Shown here piece after piece: positions 10,407-38,894 of a stretch of 38,894 bases of DNA. Under the pieces are notes generated by a model, which saw only the letters and a program-made list of their open reading frames with translations, did not search any database and was not told where the DNA came from. Position numbers and translations under genes: made by a program. The stretch covers positions 1-38,894 of the forward strand of contig JBEQLE010000041.1 in NCBI GenBank assembly GCA_040326155.1. Direction: 5' to 3'. This DNA is from Leptospirales bacterium (GTDB taxonomy: Bacteria; Spirochaetota; Leptospiria; Turneriellales; JAOUFE01). Position 1 is the stretch's first letter; every line of letters begins with the position of its first letter.

Positions 10407-10561
10407 TATTATTCCTTAGACAAGGATTGTTTATCACCCCGTTTTGTAAACTTTTTATGTTTTACAATCTGTGTTGATATCGTCACATAAAAAACAAGTA
10501 TCTAACTTAATTTTAGCCCTGTTTGATGCCGATAATGTATCAAATGGATACGAGGAGAATT

Positions 10562-11254
10562 ATGAAACCTTTAAAAAAGAAAGCACTCACATTTTTATCA
10601 CTATTTATCGCAGGGTCACTATTCCTGTCGGTGTACGCTCAAGATGACAAACTGCAAAGTTCACAACAAATGCAAGACGAAAGCAAGACCTTAAATGTCA
10701 AAATTGTAGAGTACAGCAAACTATTGAGCGAATTTAACAGTTTAACAAAAGAGCCAGTGAAAATTACACCTGCACAGACCAAATTTTTTAAAGGCAACGA
10801 TTATATTGAACTTGAAAGTTACCTGTTTATACAAGAAGGGTTAGGTTCTACAAAAGTAGTCGGAAGCAAAGTCACTAAAATGCGGCTGTATTTTAACGGG
10901 GGCGACAGTGGTGGTGAACTTTCCAAAATCATAACAGAAATAACAATGAATGACTTCAAAGAAAAAACTGTATACTACCATAAAATTACAGACCCCTCGC
11001 CGGCCACCGAAGATACCGACGATATAATTATAAATGAGAAAGTCGACGGCTACGAGGAAACGGAAACAACACTTGGTCAGTACGATTTGACAATAAGTAA
11101 CCCTAATAGAATCAAATTTAAACGTGAATTCTACTTGCCTCTTTTGGTAGATTTTGAGCGCCTGTTTCGCTACACCGAAAACTACCAACGGATGTACGGT
11201 TCAAATAACAATTACGAAACTATTGAGTTACTGAAACACTCACAAAACTATTAA
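10562..11254 (+). CDS. FcpB-like periplasmic flagellar sheath/coiling protein
   Basis: GAGGAG RBS, signal peptide ending VYA-Q. Motifs LSKIITEI, ITDPSP..DDIII, RIKFKREFYLPLLVDF and LLKHSQNY resemble Leptospira FcpB as recalled. Confidence 0.6.
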   Translation: MKPLKKKALTFLSLFIAGSLFLSVYAQDDKLQSSQQMQDESKTLNVKIVEYSKLLSEFNSLTKEPVKITPAQTKFFKGNDYIELESYLFIQEGLGSTKVVGSKVTKMRLYFNGGDSGGELSKIITEITMNDFKEKTVYYHKITDPSPATEDTDDIIINEKVDGYEETETTLGQYDLTISNPNRIKFKREFYLPLLVDFERLFRYTENYQRMYGSNNNYETIELLKHSQNY

Positions 11255-28792: not shown

Positions 28793-31140
28793 ATGAATAA
28801 TAAAAAACAGGATACTGAAACCATAGTCATTCTTGGCGGTGGGTTGTTGCAAAAAAATCTCGTAATTGCTGCAAACAAAAAAGGGTGGAGGACGGTTGTT
28901 ATCGATAAAAACCCTAAAGCCTTAGCCGGCCCGCTTGCAACTGTTTTTATAAATATTTCAACAAGCCAACCTGGCCCGATTATTGAAAAGTTAAAAACCC
29001 AGCCCTTTGAAATTAATTATTGTGGTACCGTGGGAACCGATATGTCGTCGACGATTGCGGCTATTAACAAAGCCTTTGCGCTCGAAGGCCTGAATAGAGA
29101 ACAAGCCCTTGTAACAACTCACAAAGGTAAATGCGCGATTTTCTGCGAACCCATAAAATTCCCCAACCCGATTATGCCTGGTCCGACGATAAAGAGTCTC
29201 TGCGTAAATGGATGAATGAAAATAATTTTCGACACGGTTATGTCATTAAACCAGTTCGAAATATGGGCTCTCGCGGTGTAATGCACTTACAAAATTCCAA
29301 TGAGTTGGCCTTCGGTTTTGAGTTTGCCCTCTCTTTTTCTCTTGATCCGTCTGTAATAGTAGAAGAGTATGTTCCGGGCTCTGAATATTCCATCGATGTT
29401 TTATGCCACAATAAGAAAACATGGTGCGTGGGGCTTGCTGATCGGGAAATTGAACGAGCCGAGGACCGCTTTTTTGTAGAGACCGGGCATAACATGCCCT
29501 CTGCCGCCCCCCCCGAAATACAAAAAGAAATTATCGATATTATGGACCGGTTTGCAGCCAGCCTGTCGACTCTGGGCGACTTCCCCTACCAGGGGCCGTT
29601 AAAAGGGGATATTCGAGAGCGCGAAAACGGGGAAATTATTGTTGGCGAAATCGCCTCACGATTGTCGGGGGGTTTTATGAGCACCCACACCTATCCCCTG
29701 GCTACCGGCATCGACTTGATGGATACTTATTTGAATCTTCTTTCATTGGCCAATTCAACAGAATCCAATACTGGCAGTTTCAGCGAAAAAAAATTTAAAA
29801 AAGTTTTTAATAATAGTGATAATGAACTTTATAAAAAAAATGTTATCGAAAGAGCTCTCATCGCCGAACCCGGAATTCTTGAAAAAATTGTTATTCCCGA
29901 AAACCTCGAAACCTTTTCAGTTACAAACTCTTTTGTTCACTATTCGCAAGGTGAATGGATTTCGCCTGTAAAAAACAATATCGGTAAAACCGCCAACTTT
30001 ATTATCGTAGCCAAAGATCTGGAAACCGCCCGTGAAAACTGGAGCCGTCTAAAAGAACAGATTATAATCGAAACCGCTTTTCGGACCCTCTCTAAAAAGG
30101 AAATTCGAAAAGAGTCTAAGAAAAAGTTTAACCCGGCTGTTTGCTGGGTTTGTGTAGAGTGCGATGGAATACATTGCGCTTCGGGGGTTCCCGGAATGGG
30201 TGGCGCAGGCAACCAGGAGACCTTTCGCAAAAACTCCCTCGACTTAAAGAAAATTGTTATCGAGCCTTCTTATATACAAAAAGAGTCGCAAAAGAACCGA
30301 AATGAAAATACCCCTCCCGATCTTTCACTTCAGATTTTCGGTCAAAATTTGAAGATGCCTGTTTTAGGAGCTCCCATTACCGGGGCAAAAACCAATCTCG
30401 GTTCCAGTATTACAGAATATGACTATGCCATGGAAACCAGCGTTGGCCTGGCCAATTCAGGGTCTCTGGCTATGTTTGGCGATGGGGCTTCGGCTGATAA
30501 ATATTTTGTTGCGATGGAAGCGATCTCGCGACACGGTGGAATTTTTATTGCGAAACCTCGCCTCGACCAGGACGAAATATTGAAACGAGCTTCGGCCGCG
30601 CTCGAAGCTGGCGCAACAGCGTGGGGTATCGATATTGACTCTGTTGGTATTCAAACCTTTCGAAATCGTAAGACAGCAACGAGTCGAAAAACCGAAAGTG
30701 AACTCGCCGAACTGAAAAACCATATTTCTCTGCCATTTATTGTGAAGGGCATTATGACTATAAACGACGCAGACCTGGCCTGTAAAGCTGGCGCACACGC
30801 GATTGTCGTAAGCAACCACGGAGGAAGAATTCTCGATATGCTGCCTTCCACCGTTTCAGTTTTACCCGAAATCGCAAAACATATAAAACAAAATTATCCC
30901 GAAGTTGTTATTTTAGCCGACGGAGGAATTCGTACGGGTTCCGATATTTTTAAAATGATCTCGCTTGGCGCCGATGCGGTTCTGATTGGGCGTCCTCTGG
31001 CAATTGCAACAATCGCTTTTGGCCGTTTTGGTGCAGAATCGTTATTTCGAAATCTTAAAAATGAACTCGAATCGATTATGGTGAATCTGGGCATTGCTGA
31101 TTTCGCTGCTATACGCGGGAGTGTTGATCTATTGGGATAA
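28793..31140 (+). pseudogene. ATP-grasp ligase fused to FMN-dependent alpha-hydroxy-acid oxidase, split by a 1-nt frameshift near 29130 (may be a sequencing error)
   Basis: ORF1 has ILGGGLLQ...HKGK. ORF2 has MRDFL, VIKP..MGSRGV, EEY, EIASRLSGG, a Cys cluster, VSNHGGR, DGGIR and LIGRP. One extra A gives HKGKMRD. Confidence 0.85.
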
Positions 31141-31154
31141 GGTGAAAGAGTGGC

Positions 31155-31400
31155 ATGCTCTACGAAATGGCGAGGCGCTACGACGAGTGGCCTGGACGTA
31201 ACTACCTTGGTTCAAGCGCGCGCGGTGCCATGAAGGGCTGGTACAAGCACGGGGTATGCGCCGATTCCCTATGGCCCTACGACCCGAAAAACCCCGACCG
31301 CTTGCTAACCGACGAACGCGCAGCCGACGCCGCCATGCGACCGTTGGGCGTTTACTACCGCGTACCTTCTAAAGACTTAAGCGCCATGCACGCCGCCCTC
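31155..31400 (+). pseudogene. Internal fragment of a C1A (papain-like) cysteine peptidase
   Basis: LYEMARRYDEWPG..GSSARGAMKGWYKHGVC...WPY; the catalytic Cys, His and Asn regions are missing; GC-rich. Confidence 0.65.
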
Positions 31401-31521
31401 GCAAAAAATAGAGAAAACAAATTATTTCACCGGTATGGTTTGATTCCATCCCGATGAAATAAAATTTACGGTACCACTTGTAGGCACAAAGCCGGGTAAT
31501 GGTGTCGTCCAGACAAGCTGT

Positions 31522-32064
31522 CTAATCTACACCCCTTATAACAGTAGTCCAGAGGGTGCCATCGATTTTCATCGCGACGATGTATGAATTACTGGCACTT
31601 ACACTGGCCCAGTTTGTCGCAGTGCCAATCTGCACCGGTGTTAGTTTGTTCACCGCAGTTCCATCGCCAAGCTGACCCTGAGTATTCCGTCCCCAGGCCC
31701 AGAGGGTGCCATCGCTTTTGATCGCCGTAGTGTGGTGAGCACCGACACCCAAACTGGCCCAGTTCGTCGCAGTGCCAATCTGTACCGGTGTTAATTTTTT
31801 CACCGTAGTTCCATCGCCAAGCTGACCATAATTATTCAGCCCCCAGGACCAGAGTGTGCCATCGCTTTTGATCGCGACGGTGTGGCGAGCACCGACACCT
31901 AAACTAGCCCAGTTTGTCGCAGTGCCAATTTGCACCAGTTTTAATTTGTCCACCGCAGCGCCATTGCTATATATCGCAGCGGTGTGTACATAACCGGCAA
32001 CGCTGACCAATGCCGATACCAGAATGACTACGGTGTATTTTCTAATATTGTTTAAAACATTCAT
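31522..32064 (-). CDS. RCC1/BLIP-II-like repeat protein, copy 1 (short, about 3 repeats)
   Basis: 50-aa repeats [26 protein letters not shown]; GGAG RBS; hydrophobic N-terminus. Confidence 0.85.
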
Positions 32065-32252
32065 GACTTTCTCCTCTCATATAAACAAATCGAATATAGA
32101 CAAAAAGGATTTTTAACAGTATTAAACCTACCGCTACCAGCCTTGACCAATGTCAATGACCTATGCTTTTCTGTTTTCTTTGATTTTATTACAATACTAC
32201 TTCTTTCCCAAAGCTAAGCTATCATTATTCAGCATTTCGTCAAGATTTTATA
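32065..32252 (-). repeat. Conserved upstream/promoter block, repeated at about 33656-33846, 35288-35438 (truncated) and 36637-36820
   Basis: Shared CAGTATTAAACC..CTACCAGCCTTGACCAATG..TTTTCTGTTTTCTTTGA..TACTACTTCTTTCCCAAAG..CATTTCGTCAAG; the minus strand carries a -35-like TTGACG. Confidence 0.9.
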
Positions 32253-32512
32253 AGACAAATATTCAGGTTTTGTCAAGTCAAGTCAGAAAATGGAAAGAGG
32301 ATTGTTTAGGGTGGCCCGGCCCTGTTATGGCGAACTATAACTTCACAGAAAAAGAGATTGGTAAAACTGCATCGCTGGCTGCAATTCTTTCCTGTTGTAT
32401 AGCAGCACTAATTGTTTCACCGGTATGGAATCTAGCCATCCCGGAGAAATAAAATTTACGGTACCATGTGTAGGCATAAAGCCGGGTAATGGTTGTCGTC
32501 CAGAAAATCTGG

Positions 32513-33655
32513 TTATCGTACACCCATTACAATATTAGCCCAGAGGGTGCCGTCGCTTTTAATCGCAACGGTGCGTACAGAACTGGCACTTACGCTGGCC
32601 CAGTTCGTCGCAGTGCCAATTTGCACCGGTGTGGATTTATTCACCGTAGTTCCATCGCCAAACTGACCAACACTGTTATCCCCCCAGGCCCAGAGGGTGC
32701 CATCGATTTTGATCGCTATAGTGTGGAAATAACCGGCACTTACACTGGCCCAGTTTGTCGCAGTGCCAATTTGCACCGGTGTTAATCTGGTTTTCCTAGT
32801 TCCATCGCCAAGCTGACCATATTTATTATACCCCCAGGCCCAGAGGGTGCCATCGATTTTCATCGCAACGGTGTGGTAATAACCAGCACTTACGCTGGAC
32901 CAGTTTTTCGCAGTACCAATCTGCAACGGTGTTGATTTGCCCACCGTAGTTCCATCGCCAAGCTCGCCATGAGCGTTATACCCCCAAGCCCAGAGGGTAC
33001 CATCGATTTTGATCGCCGTAGTGTGGCGGGCACCGGCACCTAAACTGACCCAGTTTGTTGCAGTGCCAATCTGCAACGGTCTTAATTTGTTTACCCCAGT
33101 TCCATCGCCAAGCTGACCATAAGCACTATGTCCCCAGGCCCAGAGGGTGCCATCGCTTTTAATCGCCATAGTGTGGTAATAACCGGCGCTTACACTGGCC
33201 CAGTTTGTTGCAGTGCCAATTTGCACTGGTGTTGATTTGCCCACCGTAGTTCCATCACCAAGCTGGCCCTTACCGTTACCGCCCCAGGCCCAGAGGGTGC
33301 CATCGATTTTGATCGCCGAAGTGTGGCGAGCACCGACACCTAAACTGGCCCAGTTCGTCGCAGTGCCAATTTGCACCGTTGCTAATTTTTTCACCTTAGT
33401 ACCATCGCCAAGCTGGCCCTGATCATTCCATCCCCAGGCCCCGTAGGTGCCATCGCTTTTGATCGCGACGGTGAATCCCTCGCCGGCACCTACACTGGTC
33501 CAGTTTGTCGCAGAGCCAATTTGCACCAGTGTGAATTTGTCTACCGCAGTGCCATTGCTATATATCGAAGCTGTGTGTACATAACCAGCAACGCTGACCA
33601 AAACCGATACCAGAATGACTCCGGTGTATTTTCTAACCTTGTTTAAAATATTCAT
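32513..33655 (-). CDS. RCC1/BLIP-II-like beta-propeller protein, copy 2 (about 7 repeats)
   Basis: Same 150-bp repeats; start placed at the ATG after AAGGAG, as in the paralogues. Confidence 0.9.
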   Translation of the reverse strand: MNILNKVRKYTGVILVSVLVSVAGYVHTASIYSNGTAVDKFTLVQIGSATNWTSVGAGEGFTVAIKSDGTYGAWGWNDQGQLGDGTKVKKLATVQIGTATNWASLGVGARHTSAIKIDGTLWAWGGNGKGQLGDGTTVGKSTPVQIGTATNWASVSAGYYHTMAIKSDGTLWAWGHSAYGQLGDGTGVNKLRPLQIGTATNWVSLGAGARHTTAIKIDGTLWAWGYNAHGELGDGTTVGKSTPLQIGTAKNWSSVSAGYYHTVAMKIDGTLWAWGYNKYGQLGDGTRKTRLTPVQIGTATNWASVSAGYFHTIAIKIDGTLWAWGDNSVGQFGDGTTVNKSTPVQIGTATNWASVSASSVRTVAIKSDGTLWANIVMGVR

Positions 33656-34093
33656 GACTTTCTCCTTTTGCACAATGAAATCGAATATAGACAAAAAAGG
33701 AATTTTAACAGTATTAAACCAAGCGCTACCAGCCTTGACCAATGTTAGTGACTTATGCTTTTCTGTTTTCTTTGACTTTATTATATTACTACTTCTTTCC
33801 CAAAGTCTAAGCTGACGTTATACAACATTTCGTCAAGGTTTTATAAAACAAATATTCAGGTTTTTTATAATAATATGTTTTTTACGTGAATCAATAACTT
33901 TATGCGCTACTCTTACTAATGTTCCAGCCCAACTCACCAACTTCGTCTAATAAATAAAACAAAAACTAAGAATGAAACATTTACAGAGAAGTGTTGAAAA
34001 TCTCATCGAAACCATATGTCACGCCCTCGCAAAAAAAAGAGCAAACAAATTATTTCATCTGGATGGAATCAGGCCATCCCAGTGAAACAAAGT

Positions 34094-35287
34094 CTATGGT
34101 AACAGGGTCGGCACATGTCGGTCAACCACATCGCCCAGACCAAGCTGGCCATAATGATTCCACCCCCAGGACCAGAAGGTGCCATCATCTTGCAGTGTCA
34201 CGGTGTGCATAGCCCCTGCACTTATACTGGCCCAGTTTGTCGCAGTGCTGATCTGCACCGGTGTTTTTTTCATTCGCGTTGTTCCATCGCCAAGCGGGCC
34301 AAAATAATTATATCCCCAGGACCAGAGGGTGCTATCGGTTTTAATCGCGACGGTGTGAGCAGAACCGGTACTTACACTGGCCCAGTTTGTCGCAGTGCCG
34401 ATCTGCACCGGTGTTACTTTACATACCGCAGTTCCATCGCCAAGCTGCCCCTGACCGTTATACCCCCAGGCCCAGAGGGTGCCATCGGTTTTAATCGCGA
34501 CGGTGAAGCTCTCGCCGGTACTTACACTGGCCCAGTTTGTCGCAGTGCCAATTTGCACCGGTGTTAATTTGTCCACCCTAGTTCCATCGCCAAGCTGTCC
34601 ATAAACATTATCTCCCCAGGCCCAGAGGGTGCCATCGCTTTTGATCGCAACGGTGTGTGCATGACCGGCACTTACACTGGCCCAGTTTGTCGCAGTACCA
34701 ATTCGCACCGGTGTTAATTTATCCACAATTGTTCCATCGCCAAGCTGACCATAATTATTCAGCCCCCAGGCCCAGAGGGTGCCATCGCTTCGGATCGCAA
34801 CGGTGCGATAAGCACCGCCGTTTACACTGGACCAGTTTGTCGCAGTGCCGATCTGCACCGGTGTTAATTTACTTACCGTAGTTCCATCGCCAAGCTCGCC
34901 CTTGACGTTAGCTCCCCAGGCCCAGAGGGTGCCATCGCTTTTGATCGCGACGGTGTGGATATGACCGGCACTTACACTGGCCCAGTTTGTTGCAGTGCCA
35001 ATTCGCACCGGTATTAATTTGTCCACAATTGTTCCATCGCCAAGCTGACCATACCAGTTCCATCCCCAGGCCCAGAGGGTGCCATCGATTTTGATCGCGA
35101 CGGTGTGCATAGATCCTGCACTGATACTGGCCCAGTTTGTCGCAGTGCCAATTTGCACCGATGTGGATTTGGCCACCGCAGTGCCATTGCTATATATCGC
35201 AGCGGTGTGTACATAACCGGCAACGCTGACCAATACCGATACCAGAATGACTCCGGTGTATTTTCTAATCTTGTTTAAAATATTCAT
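34094..35287 (-). CDS. RCC1/BLIP-II-like beta-propeller protein, copy 3 (complete C-terminus)
   Basis: Repeat landmarks at 34141, 34291 ... 35041 (exact 150-bp period); ends GQLGLGDVVDRHVPTLLP. Confidence 0.92.
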   Translation of the reverse strand: MNILNKIRKYTGVILVSVLVSVAGYVHTAAIYSNGTAVAKSTSVQIGTATNWASISAGSMHTVAIKIDGTLWAWGWNWYGQLGDGTIVDKLIPVRIGTATNWASVSAGHIHTVAIKSDGTLWAWGANVKGELGDGTTVSKLTPVQIGTATNWSSVNGGAYRTVAIRSDGTLWAWGLNNYGQLGDGTIVDKLTPVRIGTATNWASVSAGHAHTVAIKSDGTLWAWGDNVYGQLGDGTRVDKLTPVQIGTATNWASVSTGESFTVAIKTDGTLWAWGYNGQGQLGDGTAVCKVTPVQIGTATNWASVSTGSAHTVAIKTDSTLWSWGYNYFGPLGDGTTRMKKTPVQISTATNWASISAGAMHTVTLQDDGTFWSWGWNHYGQLGLGDVVDRHVPTLLP

Positions 35288-35493
35288 GACTTTCTCCTTT
35301 TGCACAATAAAATCGAATATAGACAAAAAGGAATTATAACAGTATTAAACCAAGCGCTACCAGCCTTGACCAATGTCAATGACCTATACTTTTCTGTTTT
35401 CTTTGATTTTATTATAATACTACTTCTTTCCCAAAGTCTACGGTACCATGTATAGGCACAAAGCCGGGTAATGGTGTCTCCCAGACAAGCTGG

Positions 35494-36636
35494 CTATCGT
35501 GTAGGTATTACACCAGTAGTCCAGAGGGTGCCATCACTTTTCATCACGACGGTTTCAAAAAGACCTGCACTTACACTGGCCCAGTTTGTCGCAGTGCCAA
35601 TTTGCACCGGTATTGAACTACTCACCCCAGTTCCATCGCCACCCTGACCAGTATAAATAGACCCCCAAACCCAGAGAGTGCCATCGCTTTTAATCGCGAC
35701 GGTGTTTCTATAACCGGCAATTACACTGGCCCAGTTTGTCGCAGTGCCAATTTGCACCGGTGTTAATCTGGTTTTCCTAGTTCCATCGCCAAGCTGGCCC
35801 TTACCGTTAGCTCCCCAGGCCCAGAGGGTGCCATCAATTTTCATCGCGACAGTGTGGTTATAAAGTCCGACTACACTGGCCCAGTTTGTTGCAGTGCCTA
35901 TCTGCACCGGTGTTGATTTGTTCACCGTTGTTCCATCGCCCAGCTGACCACTACGGTTAGCTCCCCAGGCCCAGAGGGTGCCATCGATTTTGATCGCAAC
36001 TGTGTGGTAATAACCGGCGCTTACACTGGCCCAGTTTGTTGCAGTGCCAATCTGCACCGGTGTTTTTTTCATTAGCGTTGTTCCATCGCCCAGCTGACCA
36101 CTACGGTTAGCTCCCCAGGCCCAGAGGGTGCCATCGATTTTGATCGCAACGGCGTGGGAAAAACCGGTACTTACACTGACCGAGTTTGTCGCAGTGCCAA
36201 TTTGCACTGGTGTTAATCTGGTCTTCCTAGTTCCATCGCCAAGCTGATAAGTATAATTATACCCCCAGGCCCAGAGGGTGCCATCGCTTTTGATCGCCGT
36301 AGTGTGGCGAGCACCGACACCTAAACTGGCCCAGTTCGTCGCAGTGCCAATTTGCACCGGTGTGGATTTGTCCACAATTGTTCCATCGCCAATCTGACCA
36401 CTACCGTTCTCTCCCCAGGCCCAGAGGGTGCCATCGCTTTTGATCGCGATGGTGAATCTCTCGCCAGCACCTACACTGGCCCAGTTTGTCGCAGTGCCAA
36501 TTTGCACCAGTTTTAATTTGTCCACCACAGTGCCATTGCTATATATCGCAGCGGTGTGTACATAACCGGCAACGCTGACCAAAGCCGATACCAGAATGAC
36601 TCGGGTGTATTTTCTAACCTTGTTTACAATTTTCAT
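35494..36636 (-). CDS. RCC1/BLIP-II-like beta-propeller protein, copy 4 (about 7 repeats)
   Basis: Same repeats, RBS and leader as the other copies. Confidence 0.9.
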   Translation of the reverse strand: MKIVNKVRKYTRVILVSALVSVAGYVHTAAIYSNGTVVDKLKLVQIGTATNWASVGAGERFTIAIKSDGTLWAWGENGSGQIGDGTIVDKSTPVQIGTATNWASLGVGARHTTAIKSDGTLWAWGYNYTYQLGDGTRKTRLTPVQIGTATNSVSVSTGFSHAVAIKIDGTLWAWGANRSGQLGDGTTLMKKTPVQIGTATNWASVSAGYYHTVAIKIDGTLWAWGANRSGQLGDGTTVNKSTPVQIGTATNWASVVGLYNHTVAMKIDGTLWAWGANGKGQLGDGTRKTRLTPVQIGTATNWASVIAGYRNTVAIKSDGTLWVWGSIYTGQGGDGTGVSSSIPVQIGTATNWASVSAGLFETVVMKSDGTLWTTGVIPTR

Positions 36637-36969
36637 GACTTTCTCCTCTATAGACAAAAAGGAATTATAACAGTATTAAACCTAGCACTACCAGCCTTGA
36701 CCAATGTCAGTGACATTGGTCACTGACATTGGCTTTTCTGTTTTCTTTGACTTTATTATAATACTACTTCTTTCCCAAAGCTAAGCTGACGTTATACAGC
36801 ATTTCGTCAAGATTTTATAATAATATTTTTTTTGATGTGAATTAATAATTTTATTGTAAGACAGTGAACTCTTTAACCAGAAATATTGAGTAAAAAAAAG
36901 AGTGCAAGAATGGACTTTGTTTTTTATGTCCTTTATTAATGGAGATAGCGGGTGGTGTTAAGTCTGTAG

Positions 36970-37208
36970 ATCTCGCAGCCAAAGGCAGGTCGCTAAAGAC
37001 TTGAGCGTGTCCGATGAGGCATTAAAAGTTGAGGAGGTGTATAGAACAAAATATACAAATTTCAAAGAGGCAAAAGTAAAATTATTTGACTACATAGAAG
37101 TGTTCTATAATAAAAAAAGGAAACATTCGATGCTGGGCTAAAGAAGTCCGTTTCAATATGTTACAAAATTAATTGCGTAGGTGTGTCCGTTTTTCCAGGG
37201 TCATGTCA
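36970..37208 (+). mobile_element. Internally deleted IS3-family remnant with right inverted repeat
   Basis: OrfA HTH-like piece [12 protein letters not shown] sits next to the OrfB tail [34 protein letters not shown]; terminal GTGTCCG...GGGTCATGTCA. Confidence 0.8.
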
Positions 37209-37491
37209 GACAATGGAATGGTTGCTCTACATGTTTCAAATTGTGATAAAAAACAATGGCTGATGTTTGTATTTTCTGTAAGTTCCTATGTGCAAAATGC
37301 CGAAAGCATTATACAATATTTATATAAGTTATTTGCGGTTTTTTACGTTACAGATTGGTCGAGATGGTTATAATTATTTCTACTGAATACTTTTGCAATA
37401 TTATTTTTAAAATTGTGAGAAATAATTTTCTTGGCGATTTTCTTTTTACCCCCTGTGTCAGGATAGTTGTCGCCTAATTTAATTTGATTTA

Positions 37492-38529
37492 TCAACATGC
37501 GATGTCTACTAAGAAATCATTTTTTGTCTCGGGGTTGAGAATCACTGTTTCTTGCCAATCCCAGTTTCGAGTGTTGCCGCTCCAGCGCATCGGATTTCTC
37601 CGTTTGGCTTTTTCGTAAGTAATGTTTCTGGTTTCTAGAATATCTTTGTCCAAGCCAAGGTGCCTTTGCATTGGAGTGACAAATTTAATCCCAGAATGCA
37701 AATGAGAATTATTGTACCAATCAACAAACTCTTCGGTCCACGCACGCGCTTGTTCGACTGATTCAAAACTCTCAGGATAGCCGGCATGATATTTTAATGT
37801 CTTAAACAGAGATTCAGAATACGGATTGTCATTGCTCACCCCAGGTCTGGAAAACGAAGGGATAACCCCAAGTTGTTGAAGCGTTGCGAGCATCGTTGCG
37901 CCTTTCATCGGACCGCCATTATCGGAATGAAGGCGTACACTTTTTATTTCCATATCAGCACAAAGCTTTTTCATTATCTCTGCTGCAAACTCCGCACTTT
38001 CAGTTTCATGGATTGCCCACCCAACAATGCTACGGCTCCAAATGTCTTGAAAAAGATACAAGAAATAATATAGCCCTTTTACGGGGCTTCGAAGATAAGT
38101 AATATCCCAGCTCCAAACCTGGTTTGGTCCGGTGGCGATCAAGGCAGGTGGTTTTTTTCGTCGTGATGATTTTCCGGGATTGCTACGCTTGACCATATCC
38201 TTGGCCTTCAAAATTCGATAGATACTTGCTTCAGAGGCAATATATTCGCCATTTTCAGCTAATTTTGGCACTATTTCATTCGGTGTCATGTTCTTGTATT
38301 GTTCTGAACAGCAGATTTCTAAAACCTGGCGTCGTTCGGATTCAGTAATTTTATTAACTGGCTTTTTCACAATGAGAGATCGTCGGTCACCAAGACTATC
38401 ATTTTGCCATCGTTGCAAGGTGCGAATGGGAAGGTTTATCGCCCGACAGGCGGCGTTCTTTCGGGCACCATTACTGTGAGCTTCTTCTATCACGACCATA
38501 ACCTGCTTCCTTGTTTCCATGTTTGTCAA
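37492..38529 (-). CDS. IS3-family transposase OrfB (DDE/rve)
   Basis: PNQVWSWDITYL, HSDNGGPM, SRPGVSNDNPYSESLFKTLK and WYNNSHLHSGI motifs. Confidence 0.95.
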   Translation of the reverse strand: MTNMETRKQVMVVIEEAHSNGARKNAACRAINLPIRTLQRWQNDSLGDRRSLIVKKPVNKITESERRQVLEICCSEQYKNMTPNEIVPKLAENGEYIASEASIYRILKAKDMVKRSNPGKSSRRKKPPALIATGPNQVWSWDITYLRSPVKGLYYFLYLFQDIWSRSIVGWAIHETESAEFAAEIMKKLCADMEIKSVRLHSDNGGPMKGATMLATLQQLGVIPSFSRPGVSNDNPYSESLFKTLKYHAGYPESFESVEQARAWTEEFVDWYNNSHLHSGIKFVTPMQRHLGLDKDILETRNITYEKAKRRNPMRWSGNTRNWDWQETVILNPETKNDFLVDIAC

Positions 38530-38894
38530 TCCTCCTTTTCCGAGGGAAATATATCCTGAACTTTTTTTTTAAGTATGACGATAGCCGAAAGTTCTGCAAG
38601 GGCTTTGTCTTTCTTTAAAATTTCTTTCTCCAATTGTTTATTCTGCTTTTTTAGGATCTTGTTTTCTTCCTTGTATTTCCGGGAATCGTTCATCGTCATT
38701 AACTCCTTTTCCCATAATTCGAGATGCTCACTTTTTAGGCCACTTTTGCGAAGCCATTCGCCGATTTCAGTTTGCGAGAGTCTGGCATATTCTAGAACAG
38801 CCTTAGCCTTATTTTCGTTTGACCAGCCATTTGGGCGAGCATTGTGGGCAGGTTCACTTCTGAATTTATCGCGCCAATTGTAAAGAGTTTGCGG
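38526..38894 (-). CDS. IS3-family transposase OrfA (5'-truncated by the window edge)
   Basis: Manual translation PQTLYNWRDKF...KDKALAELSAIVILKKKVQDIFPSEKED*; A9G slippery site at 38561-38570. Confidence 0.88.
   Translation of the reverse strand, partial: PQTLYNWRDKFRSEPAHNARPNGWSNENKAKAVLEYARLSQTEIGEWLRKSGLKSEHLELWEKELMTMNDSRKYKEENKILKKQNKQLEKEILKKDKALAELSAIVILKKKVQDIFPSEKED

Follow-up and report, generated by a model that had tools for sequence, protein, structure and literature searches.

How might four adjacent genes built from the same 50-codon repeat keep most of each repeat nearly constant while differing widely at a handful of its positions? The question is raised by an array of RCC1-repeat propeller genes in a Leptospirales bacterium (order Turneriellales; assembly GCA_040326155.1), found at positions 31522-36636 of contig JBEQLE010000041.1. 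This contig of 38,894 nucleotides, analysed over its whole length and referred to here as the window, is one (C107) of the 171 contigs of a 4.26-Mb assembly that is 94.7% complete. The array comprises four minus-strand paralogues, A, B, C and D (Table 1), and the evidence presented below makes it probable that it is the product of a recent tandem expansion, whose repeats recombine with each other and change at an accelerated rate in about five codons each, probably yielding a protein predicted to bind a fast-changing outside partner through one face.

The repeats start exactly 50 codons apart in all four genes, which hold 7, 7, 7 and 3 units respectively; 21 of these 24 units are complete, while the last units of A, C and D end after 37 codons. 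Tandem Repeats Finder (TRF) likewise returns a period of 150 with 0% indels in both single-gene arrays. The first-pass annotation had described exact 150-bp units in four paralogues. Their length is indeed exact, while their sequence is not, since any two units differ at 16-58 of 150 nucleotides and their mean amino acid identity is 70%, with B7 as the most divergent repeat. All four paralogues are present, D having three units rather than seven and being shorter than A and C by exactly 200 amino acids, or four units. Pfam model PF00415 matches all four proteins with 87.7-279.1 bits (cut-off 21.7) and PF25390 exceeds its cut-off in A, B and C and stays below it in D; save for one sub-threshold Reg_prop match in C, RCC1 families are the only ones detected in these proteins. 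Each leader is basic and hydrophobic (13-residue hydropathy maxima 2.25-2.67), lacks cysteine and is followed by a partial repeat, and no clear homologue of it was found elsewhere in the genome (best E 0.32). The basic N-terminus, single hydrophobic stretch, absence of a leader cysteine and absence of any other Pfam domain suggest that the proteins are likely to be exported by means of a cleaved Sec signal peptide.

To avoid circularity, the sites used for measuring selection were picked not from the array but from its homologues: positions 16, 17, 33, 35 and 36 of the repeat have a within-protein diversity of at least 0.8 across 656 repeats of 120 homologues. Variability in the array tracks the family profile so obtained (rho 0.63-0.67), positions 16-17 and 33/35/36 each displaying 6-12 different residues. 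Selection was assessed by our own counting and simulation procedures. Over the 21 complete units the proportion of synonymous differences (pS) is 0.27, whereas the proportion of non-synonymous differences (pN) is 0.72 at the five sites and 0.08 outside the three variable patches; the framework motifs quoted at first inspection are present. None of 700 neutral simulations, run on star trees or on independent coalescent trees per 50, 5 or 1 codons, reached a pN of 0.72; with array-wide divergence, a non-synonymous to synonymous rate ratio (omega) of 8 fits the data and one of 5 does not.

Site by site, the counts among 600 runs at low/high divergence were 0/1 for position 17, 0/0 for 33, 1/2 for 35 and 2/11 for 36, followed by 4/28 for 16, 9/79 for 46 and 14/94 for 44. 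These tests show an excess of amino acid change at 17, 33, 35 and 36 and, more weakly, at 16; they are suggestive of selection at 44 and 46, and neutral drift can account for positions 13, 14, 20, 24, 45 and 48. The three patches proposed to vary are all real, with AG-xx-HT and WG-xNxx-G being strongly variable and DGT-xxxK comparably varied at 44 and 46 alone. The accompanying proposal of a dN/dS above 1 holds by counts, simulations and per-site tests for the two main patches, and is suggestive for the third at 44 and 46.

The ends of the genes offer a second view of the same process. A, C and D end in 8-codon tails, which take the place of patch 2 and for which there is no donor elsewhere. 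Between pairs these tails differ at 9, 11 and 8 of 24 nucleotides, amounting over the three pairs to 26.5 non-synonymous against 1.5 synonymous changes, while the pooled flanking non-coding DNA differs by 7-11%. In the last units of these genes, codons 16-18 differ at 6-7 of 9 nucleotides and the framework at 7-9 of 78 (Fisher p 1e-5 to 6e-3 against the non-coding flanks).

Recombination among the repeats is indicated by a pairwise homoplasy index (PHI)-type test, with p=0.001 at two of its three window sizes and 0.033 at the widest, and by nearest neighbours of repeats that switch along the unit, with exact common tracts of 76 nt (A5/C5) and 75 nt (A3/A4). In a tree of 75 repeats the array units intermingle across genes, the repeats of four of eight other loci each cluster by locus with good support, and the genome of origin tends to determine the grouping more than blade number does; for the 21 units, monophyly is neither rejected nor shown (approximately unbiased test, p-AU 0.46). 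This pattern fits short-tract conversion together with gain and loss of whole units, as in gene D. Between paralogues the upstream 150 nt differ by 5-11% and the leaders at 4-9 of 105 nt; the copying of entire gene units, or their homogenisation, is therefore recent. Since A, C and D share the 37-codon end and flanks resembling the coding end of B, a single common truncation is likely.

The AlphaFold2 model of mature B (predicted local distance difference test score, pLDDT, 95; predicted template modelling score, pTM, 0.90) has 28 strands, forming seven four-stranded blades. Foldseek searches with this model rank UVR8 first, with a template modelling (TM) score of 0.91 and a root-mean-square deviation (rmsd) of 1.4-1.9 Å. 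In the modelled blade the A-B turn holds positions 16-17 and the C-D loop positions 33-46, and in an antiparallel meander the A-B and C-D connections lie at the same end of the blade. A phmmer alignment places 16/17 against W233/R234 of UVR8, 33 against W198/W250 and the invariant W31 against W196, the UVR8 numbering offset being inferred from tryptophan spacing; as described in PMC7455749, W233, W198 and W250 are at the UVR8 dimer interface and W196 is buried. The earlier suggestion that the variable residues cluster on one propeller face is consistent with these observations, and the predicted face matches the dimer face of UVR8; the placement is derived from blade topology and the UVR8 alignment (16, 17 and 33). 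Tyrosine, tryptophan, phenylalanine or histidine make up 38 of the 105 residues at the five sites. The UVR8, RCC1 and HERC domains that provide the closest structural match to B are eukaryotic and intracellular, with divergent blades, and the GWRHT tryptophan/arginine array of UVR8 is not conserved in A-D; the match therefore implies no role as a photoreceptor. In A, 27 strands are modelled and residues 1-21 (pLDDT <50), where the alignment is poor, are left unplaced; closure of its blade 7 by the N-terminal partial repeat, at which the sequence hints, was not reproduced. A homodimer prediction for D scored 0.26 against a mark of 0.42 and is not used as evidence.

The resemblance to BLIP-II proposed initially is not supported: BLIP-II ranks 49th in the Foldseek search (TM 0.58), phmmer returns no match to it and a profile comparison none at E<=10, and the array blades are four-stranded and 50 residues long. 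BLIP-II of Streptomyces exfoliatus, a 28-kDa protein with three-stranded blades according to PMC6121496, is a secreted, stand-alone propeller with seven blades and a foreign protein as its target, and serves here as a functional analogy alone.

The same variable positions recur throughout the RCC1 family, for which at least 7877 homologues were found with up to 61% identity to the array proteins. Most top matches are longer than the array proteins and carry extra domains; the internal identity of the array (0.69-0.70) is in the upper range, with eight among the homologues listed reaching 0.70. Among 87 RCC1 open reading frames (ORFs) from 82 genome loci, 21 have a pS below 0.45, and in all 21 pN exceeds pS at the five sites, by more than 1.5-fold in 19. 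The 90 RCC1 ORFs from metagenomes (73 of 79 loci used, six apparent duplicates being dropped) show the same for 32 of 32 low-pS ORFs, 28 of them by more than 1.5-fold; for those with unskewed G+C content at third codon positions (GC3) the figure is 15 of 17, extreme GC3 being a factor that lowers pS in some homologues. Together, pN is greater than pS in 53 of 53 low-pS homologues. Two or more RCC1 ORFs occur together in 6 of 82 genome and 15 of 73 metagenome loci, and three or more in 5 of the latter, although some pairs may be split genes.

The array accordingly represents a clear example of a common and apparently unpublished family behaviour, not a unique or programmed system. Its characterisation as a special, actively generated antibody-like repertoire is not upheld, given that the same positions vary family-wide, the signature is present in dozens of unrelated genomes and no diversifying machinery was found. 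A literature search, in which subscription papers were thinly covered, brought up no study of diversifying selection acting on the RCC1 repeats of bacteria. No metagenome stretch contained an exact 30-nt pattern from the framework, and none of seven ORF versions of the array was found in the protein collection, the closest metagenome relative being 65% identical.

Several individual loci bear on this comparison. The most extreme is L131 (plus strand, from ~4830), with a pS of 0.13, a pN of 0.59 at the five sites and 0.06 elsewhere, and a GC3 of 0.61; it is a cleaner test case than the array. Independent tandem sets are found at L126:3252-9441, comprising four lipoproteins with a common leader, one with inserted repeat domains, and at L134:2-3016, comprising three leader-bearing genes with a common C-terminus, one being a short two-repeat member (136 aa). 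Within the order, 11 of 34 genomes have RCC1 matches, as does one of three in the family; in that sole same-family genome (G001:C30, ~69500-71500) the repeats lie inside an open frame of ~2900 aa and are not stand-alone. The genome bearing the array has a fifth RCC1 propeller gene on contig C109 (G000:C109:14007-19841, L203), which is more divergent, encodes a lipoprotein-like leader and is situated between a weak FlgO-like gene and one for a 1183-aa protein without a Pfam match.

These data are best accommodated by a scenario in which one RCC1-repeat propeller gene expanded in tandem, whole units being copied with their upstream DNA. The repeats recombine both inside and between the four genes, short-tract gene conversion presumably keeping the frame uniform, and amino acid changes accumulate faster than silent ones in about five codons of each repeat. 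The proteins would leave the cytoplasm via the putative cleaved Sec signal peptide, and their variable residues would form one binding surface for a fast-changing outside partner. More tentatively, this partner might be a foreign protein, for instance from a phage or a competitor, which the soluble, unanchored propellers would neutralise or decoy rather than adhere to. A bolder and on balance unlikely generalisation would see the array as part of a widespread, undescribed binder-library of exported bacterial RCC1 propellers, in which short conversion tracts and selection keep rewriting five positions per blade, at a pace sufficient for polymorphism within populations; such a library might be the bacterial counterpart of the fungal het-e repertoires, with a C-terminal tail that also evolves and with phage or competitor proteins as targets. 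The bacterial RCC1 family has thousands of members in many phyla and almost no assigned function. The signature described here points to the residues that matter, indicates an evolutionary arms race against an outside partner and makes the question of the ligand testable; a small, bare scaffold of 50-residue period tolerating change at five positions is also a template for studies of repeat-protein binders.

It is less likely that the four propellers act at the cell surface as adhesins, or as lectin-like receptors that recognise varied surfaces of hosts or prey, held by an uncleaved leader or a partner protein. The evolutionary evidence would be the same as for the exported binder, the L126 proteins and the C109 paralogue have lipoprotein leaders, and many homologues carry extra Pfam domains, which we take to be type IX secretion system (T9SS) sorting, fibronectin, immunoglobulin (Ig) and PKD domains. 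Giant extracellular RCC1 proteins have been described in gut Clostridia, as outlined in 10.1101/2023.11.21.568195. On the other hand, A-D lack a lipobox cysteine, a second hydrophobic segment and an anchor domain, and the array contains no partner gene.

Certain observations weigh against selection on a one-faced binder, or at least against its strength. One of the 700 neutral runs did reach the observed pN/pS ratio. Four-fold synonymous sites beside the patches are more diverse than others (0.53 versus 0.19, p=0.003). The patches are thus in part carried along on older haplotypes, and the omega of ~8 obtained from array-wide pS is too high, ~3 fitting the local divergence. In runs with patch-local divergence the observed value was reached in 0 of 1000 at an omega of 1, in 17 at 2 and in 679 at 3, and with a deeper local divergence (d=1.6) in 6 of 1000 neutral runs. 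The three tail pair comparisons are not independent, and the recombination signal at the widest window fades when B7 is left out (p=0.36). Finally, blade 7 of the A model is three-stranded and does not use the N-terminal segment for closure, which means that A, C and D may not be as stable as supposed. With these points taken into account, omega at the five sites is about 3-8.

The raised synonymous diversity beside the patches, which recurs more weakly across homologues (near exceeds far in 58 of 87), is what would be expected if there were no positive selection, and conversion homogenised the well-matched framework while stalling at mismatched patches, where old loop variants would persist under relaxed constraint. 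Such an account, to which the correspondence of the variable positions to generic loose positions of the RCC1 consensus (rho as above) also lends itself, appears improbable. In the array the H18 and Q38 codons, which adjoin the patches, have no synonymous change. Neutral runs at the raised local divergence yield a pN of 0.51, none of 1000 attaining 0.72, and at the five sites third codon positions differ by 0.27-0.59 as against 0.54-0.77 for first and second positions. The tails, for which stalled conversion has no donor repeat to act on, differ by 33-46% between flanks that have diverged by ~10%.

There is very little to commend the array, or at least gene D, as an assembly artefact of collapsed or shuffled 150-bp repeats. 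It does lie in a repeat-rich region near the contig end of a fragmented assembly, next to a frameshifted gene, and D is short by exactly four units; but no two units are closer than 16 differences in 150 nt, the longest exact tract (76 nt) can be spanned by normal reads, each gene has its own distinct flanks, and the unrelated L134 array has a comparable short member (136 aa). That the repeats are targets of a diversity-generating retroelement (DGR) acting in trans is scarcely credible and largely refuted: variable codons do mostly keep T or C as third base (NNT/NNC) and the assembly is incomplete, but dN>dS itself produces such codons, TGG, GAG, AAG and CAG codons occur at variable sites, both reverse transcriptases (RTs; two PF00078 matches) of this incomplete assembly best match the group II RT model TIGR04416, no copy of a unit lies outside the array (blastn E<=0.01, assembly), no unit serves as template (differences at A 14-32%), four-fold sites whose consensus is A vary no more than the rest (0.27, 0.57, 0.19), and 161 homologue loci contain no RT match, a weak test with a group II query and short loci. 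The two group II intron RT genes are at G000:C142:18428-19768 and C157:1-561, one being complete and the other at a contig end.

The exported RCC1 binder preferred here has its nearest parallel in the het-d/het-e (NWD/HNWD) genes of Podospora anserina. There too, similar propeller repeats are exchanged within and between paralogues, and four to five positions per repeat on the interaction face, which in the array is a predicted one, are under diversifying selection; exchange and diversifying selection in HNWD WD40 repeats are described in PMC1805685 and PMC4986451. The Podospora proteins, as portrayed there, are fungal, cytoplasmic NACHT-containing NOD-like receptors (NLRs) with WD40 blades and possible hypermutation by repeat-induced point mutation (RIP), whereas those of the array are bacterial, stand-alone and tandemly encoded, with RCC1 blades and a signal-like leader but without an NTPase or effector domain. 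Concerted evolution and diversifying selection are common to both; the repeat identity of at least 85% given for HNWD in PMC4986451 contrasts with 70% here, and in place of the NACHT/STAND NTPase fusion of HNWD, Pfam reveals RCC1 families alone. By this analogy the array would work like the het-e WD repeats without being a member of their class.

Among bacterial RCC1-domain proteins (PF00415, PF13540, PF25390; "alpha-tubulin suppressor-like RCC1 family") the array shares the 50-aa repeat and differs in being bare, with three members ending in a short novel tail. Its blade identity (0.69-0.70) exceeds the 60% of the highly repetitive propellers of Pereira and Lupas (2022). In that work (PMC9218822) RCC1/BLIP-II forms are the third largest group (10%) of repetitive propellers, mostly bacterial, short-bladed forms are noted, and similarity is attributed to recent amplification from one blade; "positive selection" and "hypervariable" have no matches in its main text as available.

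Table 1. Coordinates of the RCC1 array genes, their flanks and adjoining features in the window
Feature	Position	Strand	Remarks
Papain-family (C1) peptidase gene fragment	31152..31396	+	left border of array; 85% DNA identity to intact gene on contig C77
3' flank of D	31417..31521	-	same remnant as 3' flank of A
Gene D	31522..32064	-	180 aa; leader and 3 repeats; frame intact
Upstream non-coding segment of D	32065..32271	-	duplicated
3' flank of C	32407..32512	-	same remnant as 3' flank of A
Gene C	32513..33655	-	380 aa; layout as in gene A
Upstream non-coding segment of C	33656..33864	-	duplicated
Gene B	34094..35287	-	397 aa; leader and 7 complete RCC1 repeats; predicted closed seven-bladed propeller
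Upstream non-coding segment of B	35288..35440	-	duplicated; 94% identical to that of C; GGAG box ahead of ATG
3' flank of A	35433..35493	-	non-coding remnant like coding end of B; 85-88% identity with C and D flanks
Gene A	35494..36636	-	380 aa; ORF 36636-35494; hydrophobic leader (~residues 1-29), 14-residue partial repeat, 6 full RCC1 repeats, 7th ending in 8-residue unique tail
Upstream non-coding segment of A	36649..36820	-	duplicated; contains inverted repeat 36701-36732
Degenerate insertion sequence (IS)-like remnant	37071..37210	+	copies on several other contigs
IS3-family element (transposase orfB and part of orfA)	37492..38894	-	right neighbour of array; runs off contig end

The 14-pair inverted repeat is found upstream of A alone and owes its origin to 13 nt inserted there that are missing from B, C and D. 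Promoter and terminator scans performed no better than shuffles (13 versus 10.0 +/- 3.5 and 9 versus 6.5 +/- 2.4, respectively). In five relatives that were checked, the flavin mononucleotide (FMN)-dehydrogenase gene is followed by different downstream genes, with no RCC1 gene within ~1.5 kb. In the window this gene is an ATP-grasp and FMN-dehydrogenase fusion (28793-31140) split by a frameshift near 29130-29180 into parts of 140 and 669 aa; as it is a single open frame of ~770 aa in the five relatives, the frameshift is a lesion or an assembly error. Downstream of B, a 44-nt piece (34022-34065) with a 93% match to contig C160 resembles the junction after the peptidase fragment, which suggests that the flanks of the array may be a patchwork.

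Farther from the array, a 243-aa protein encoded at 10523-11254 has sub-threshold matches to the LIC_12096, FcpB and LenA families. At 298-2293, an Sll1717-family P-loop ATPase, above the NCBIfam cut-off and with a weak match to an anti-phage model, is followed by a small membrane protein, the two making up a possible candidate defence module.

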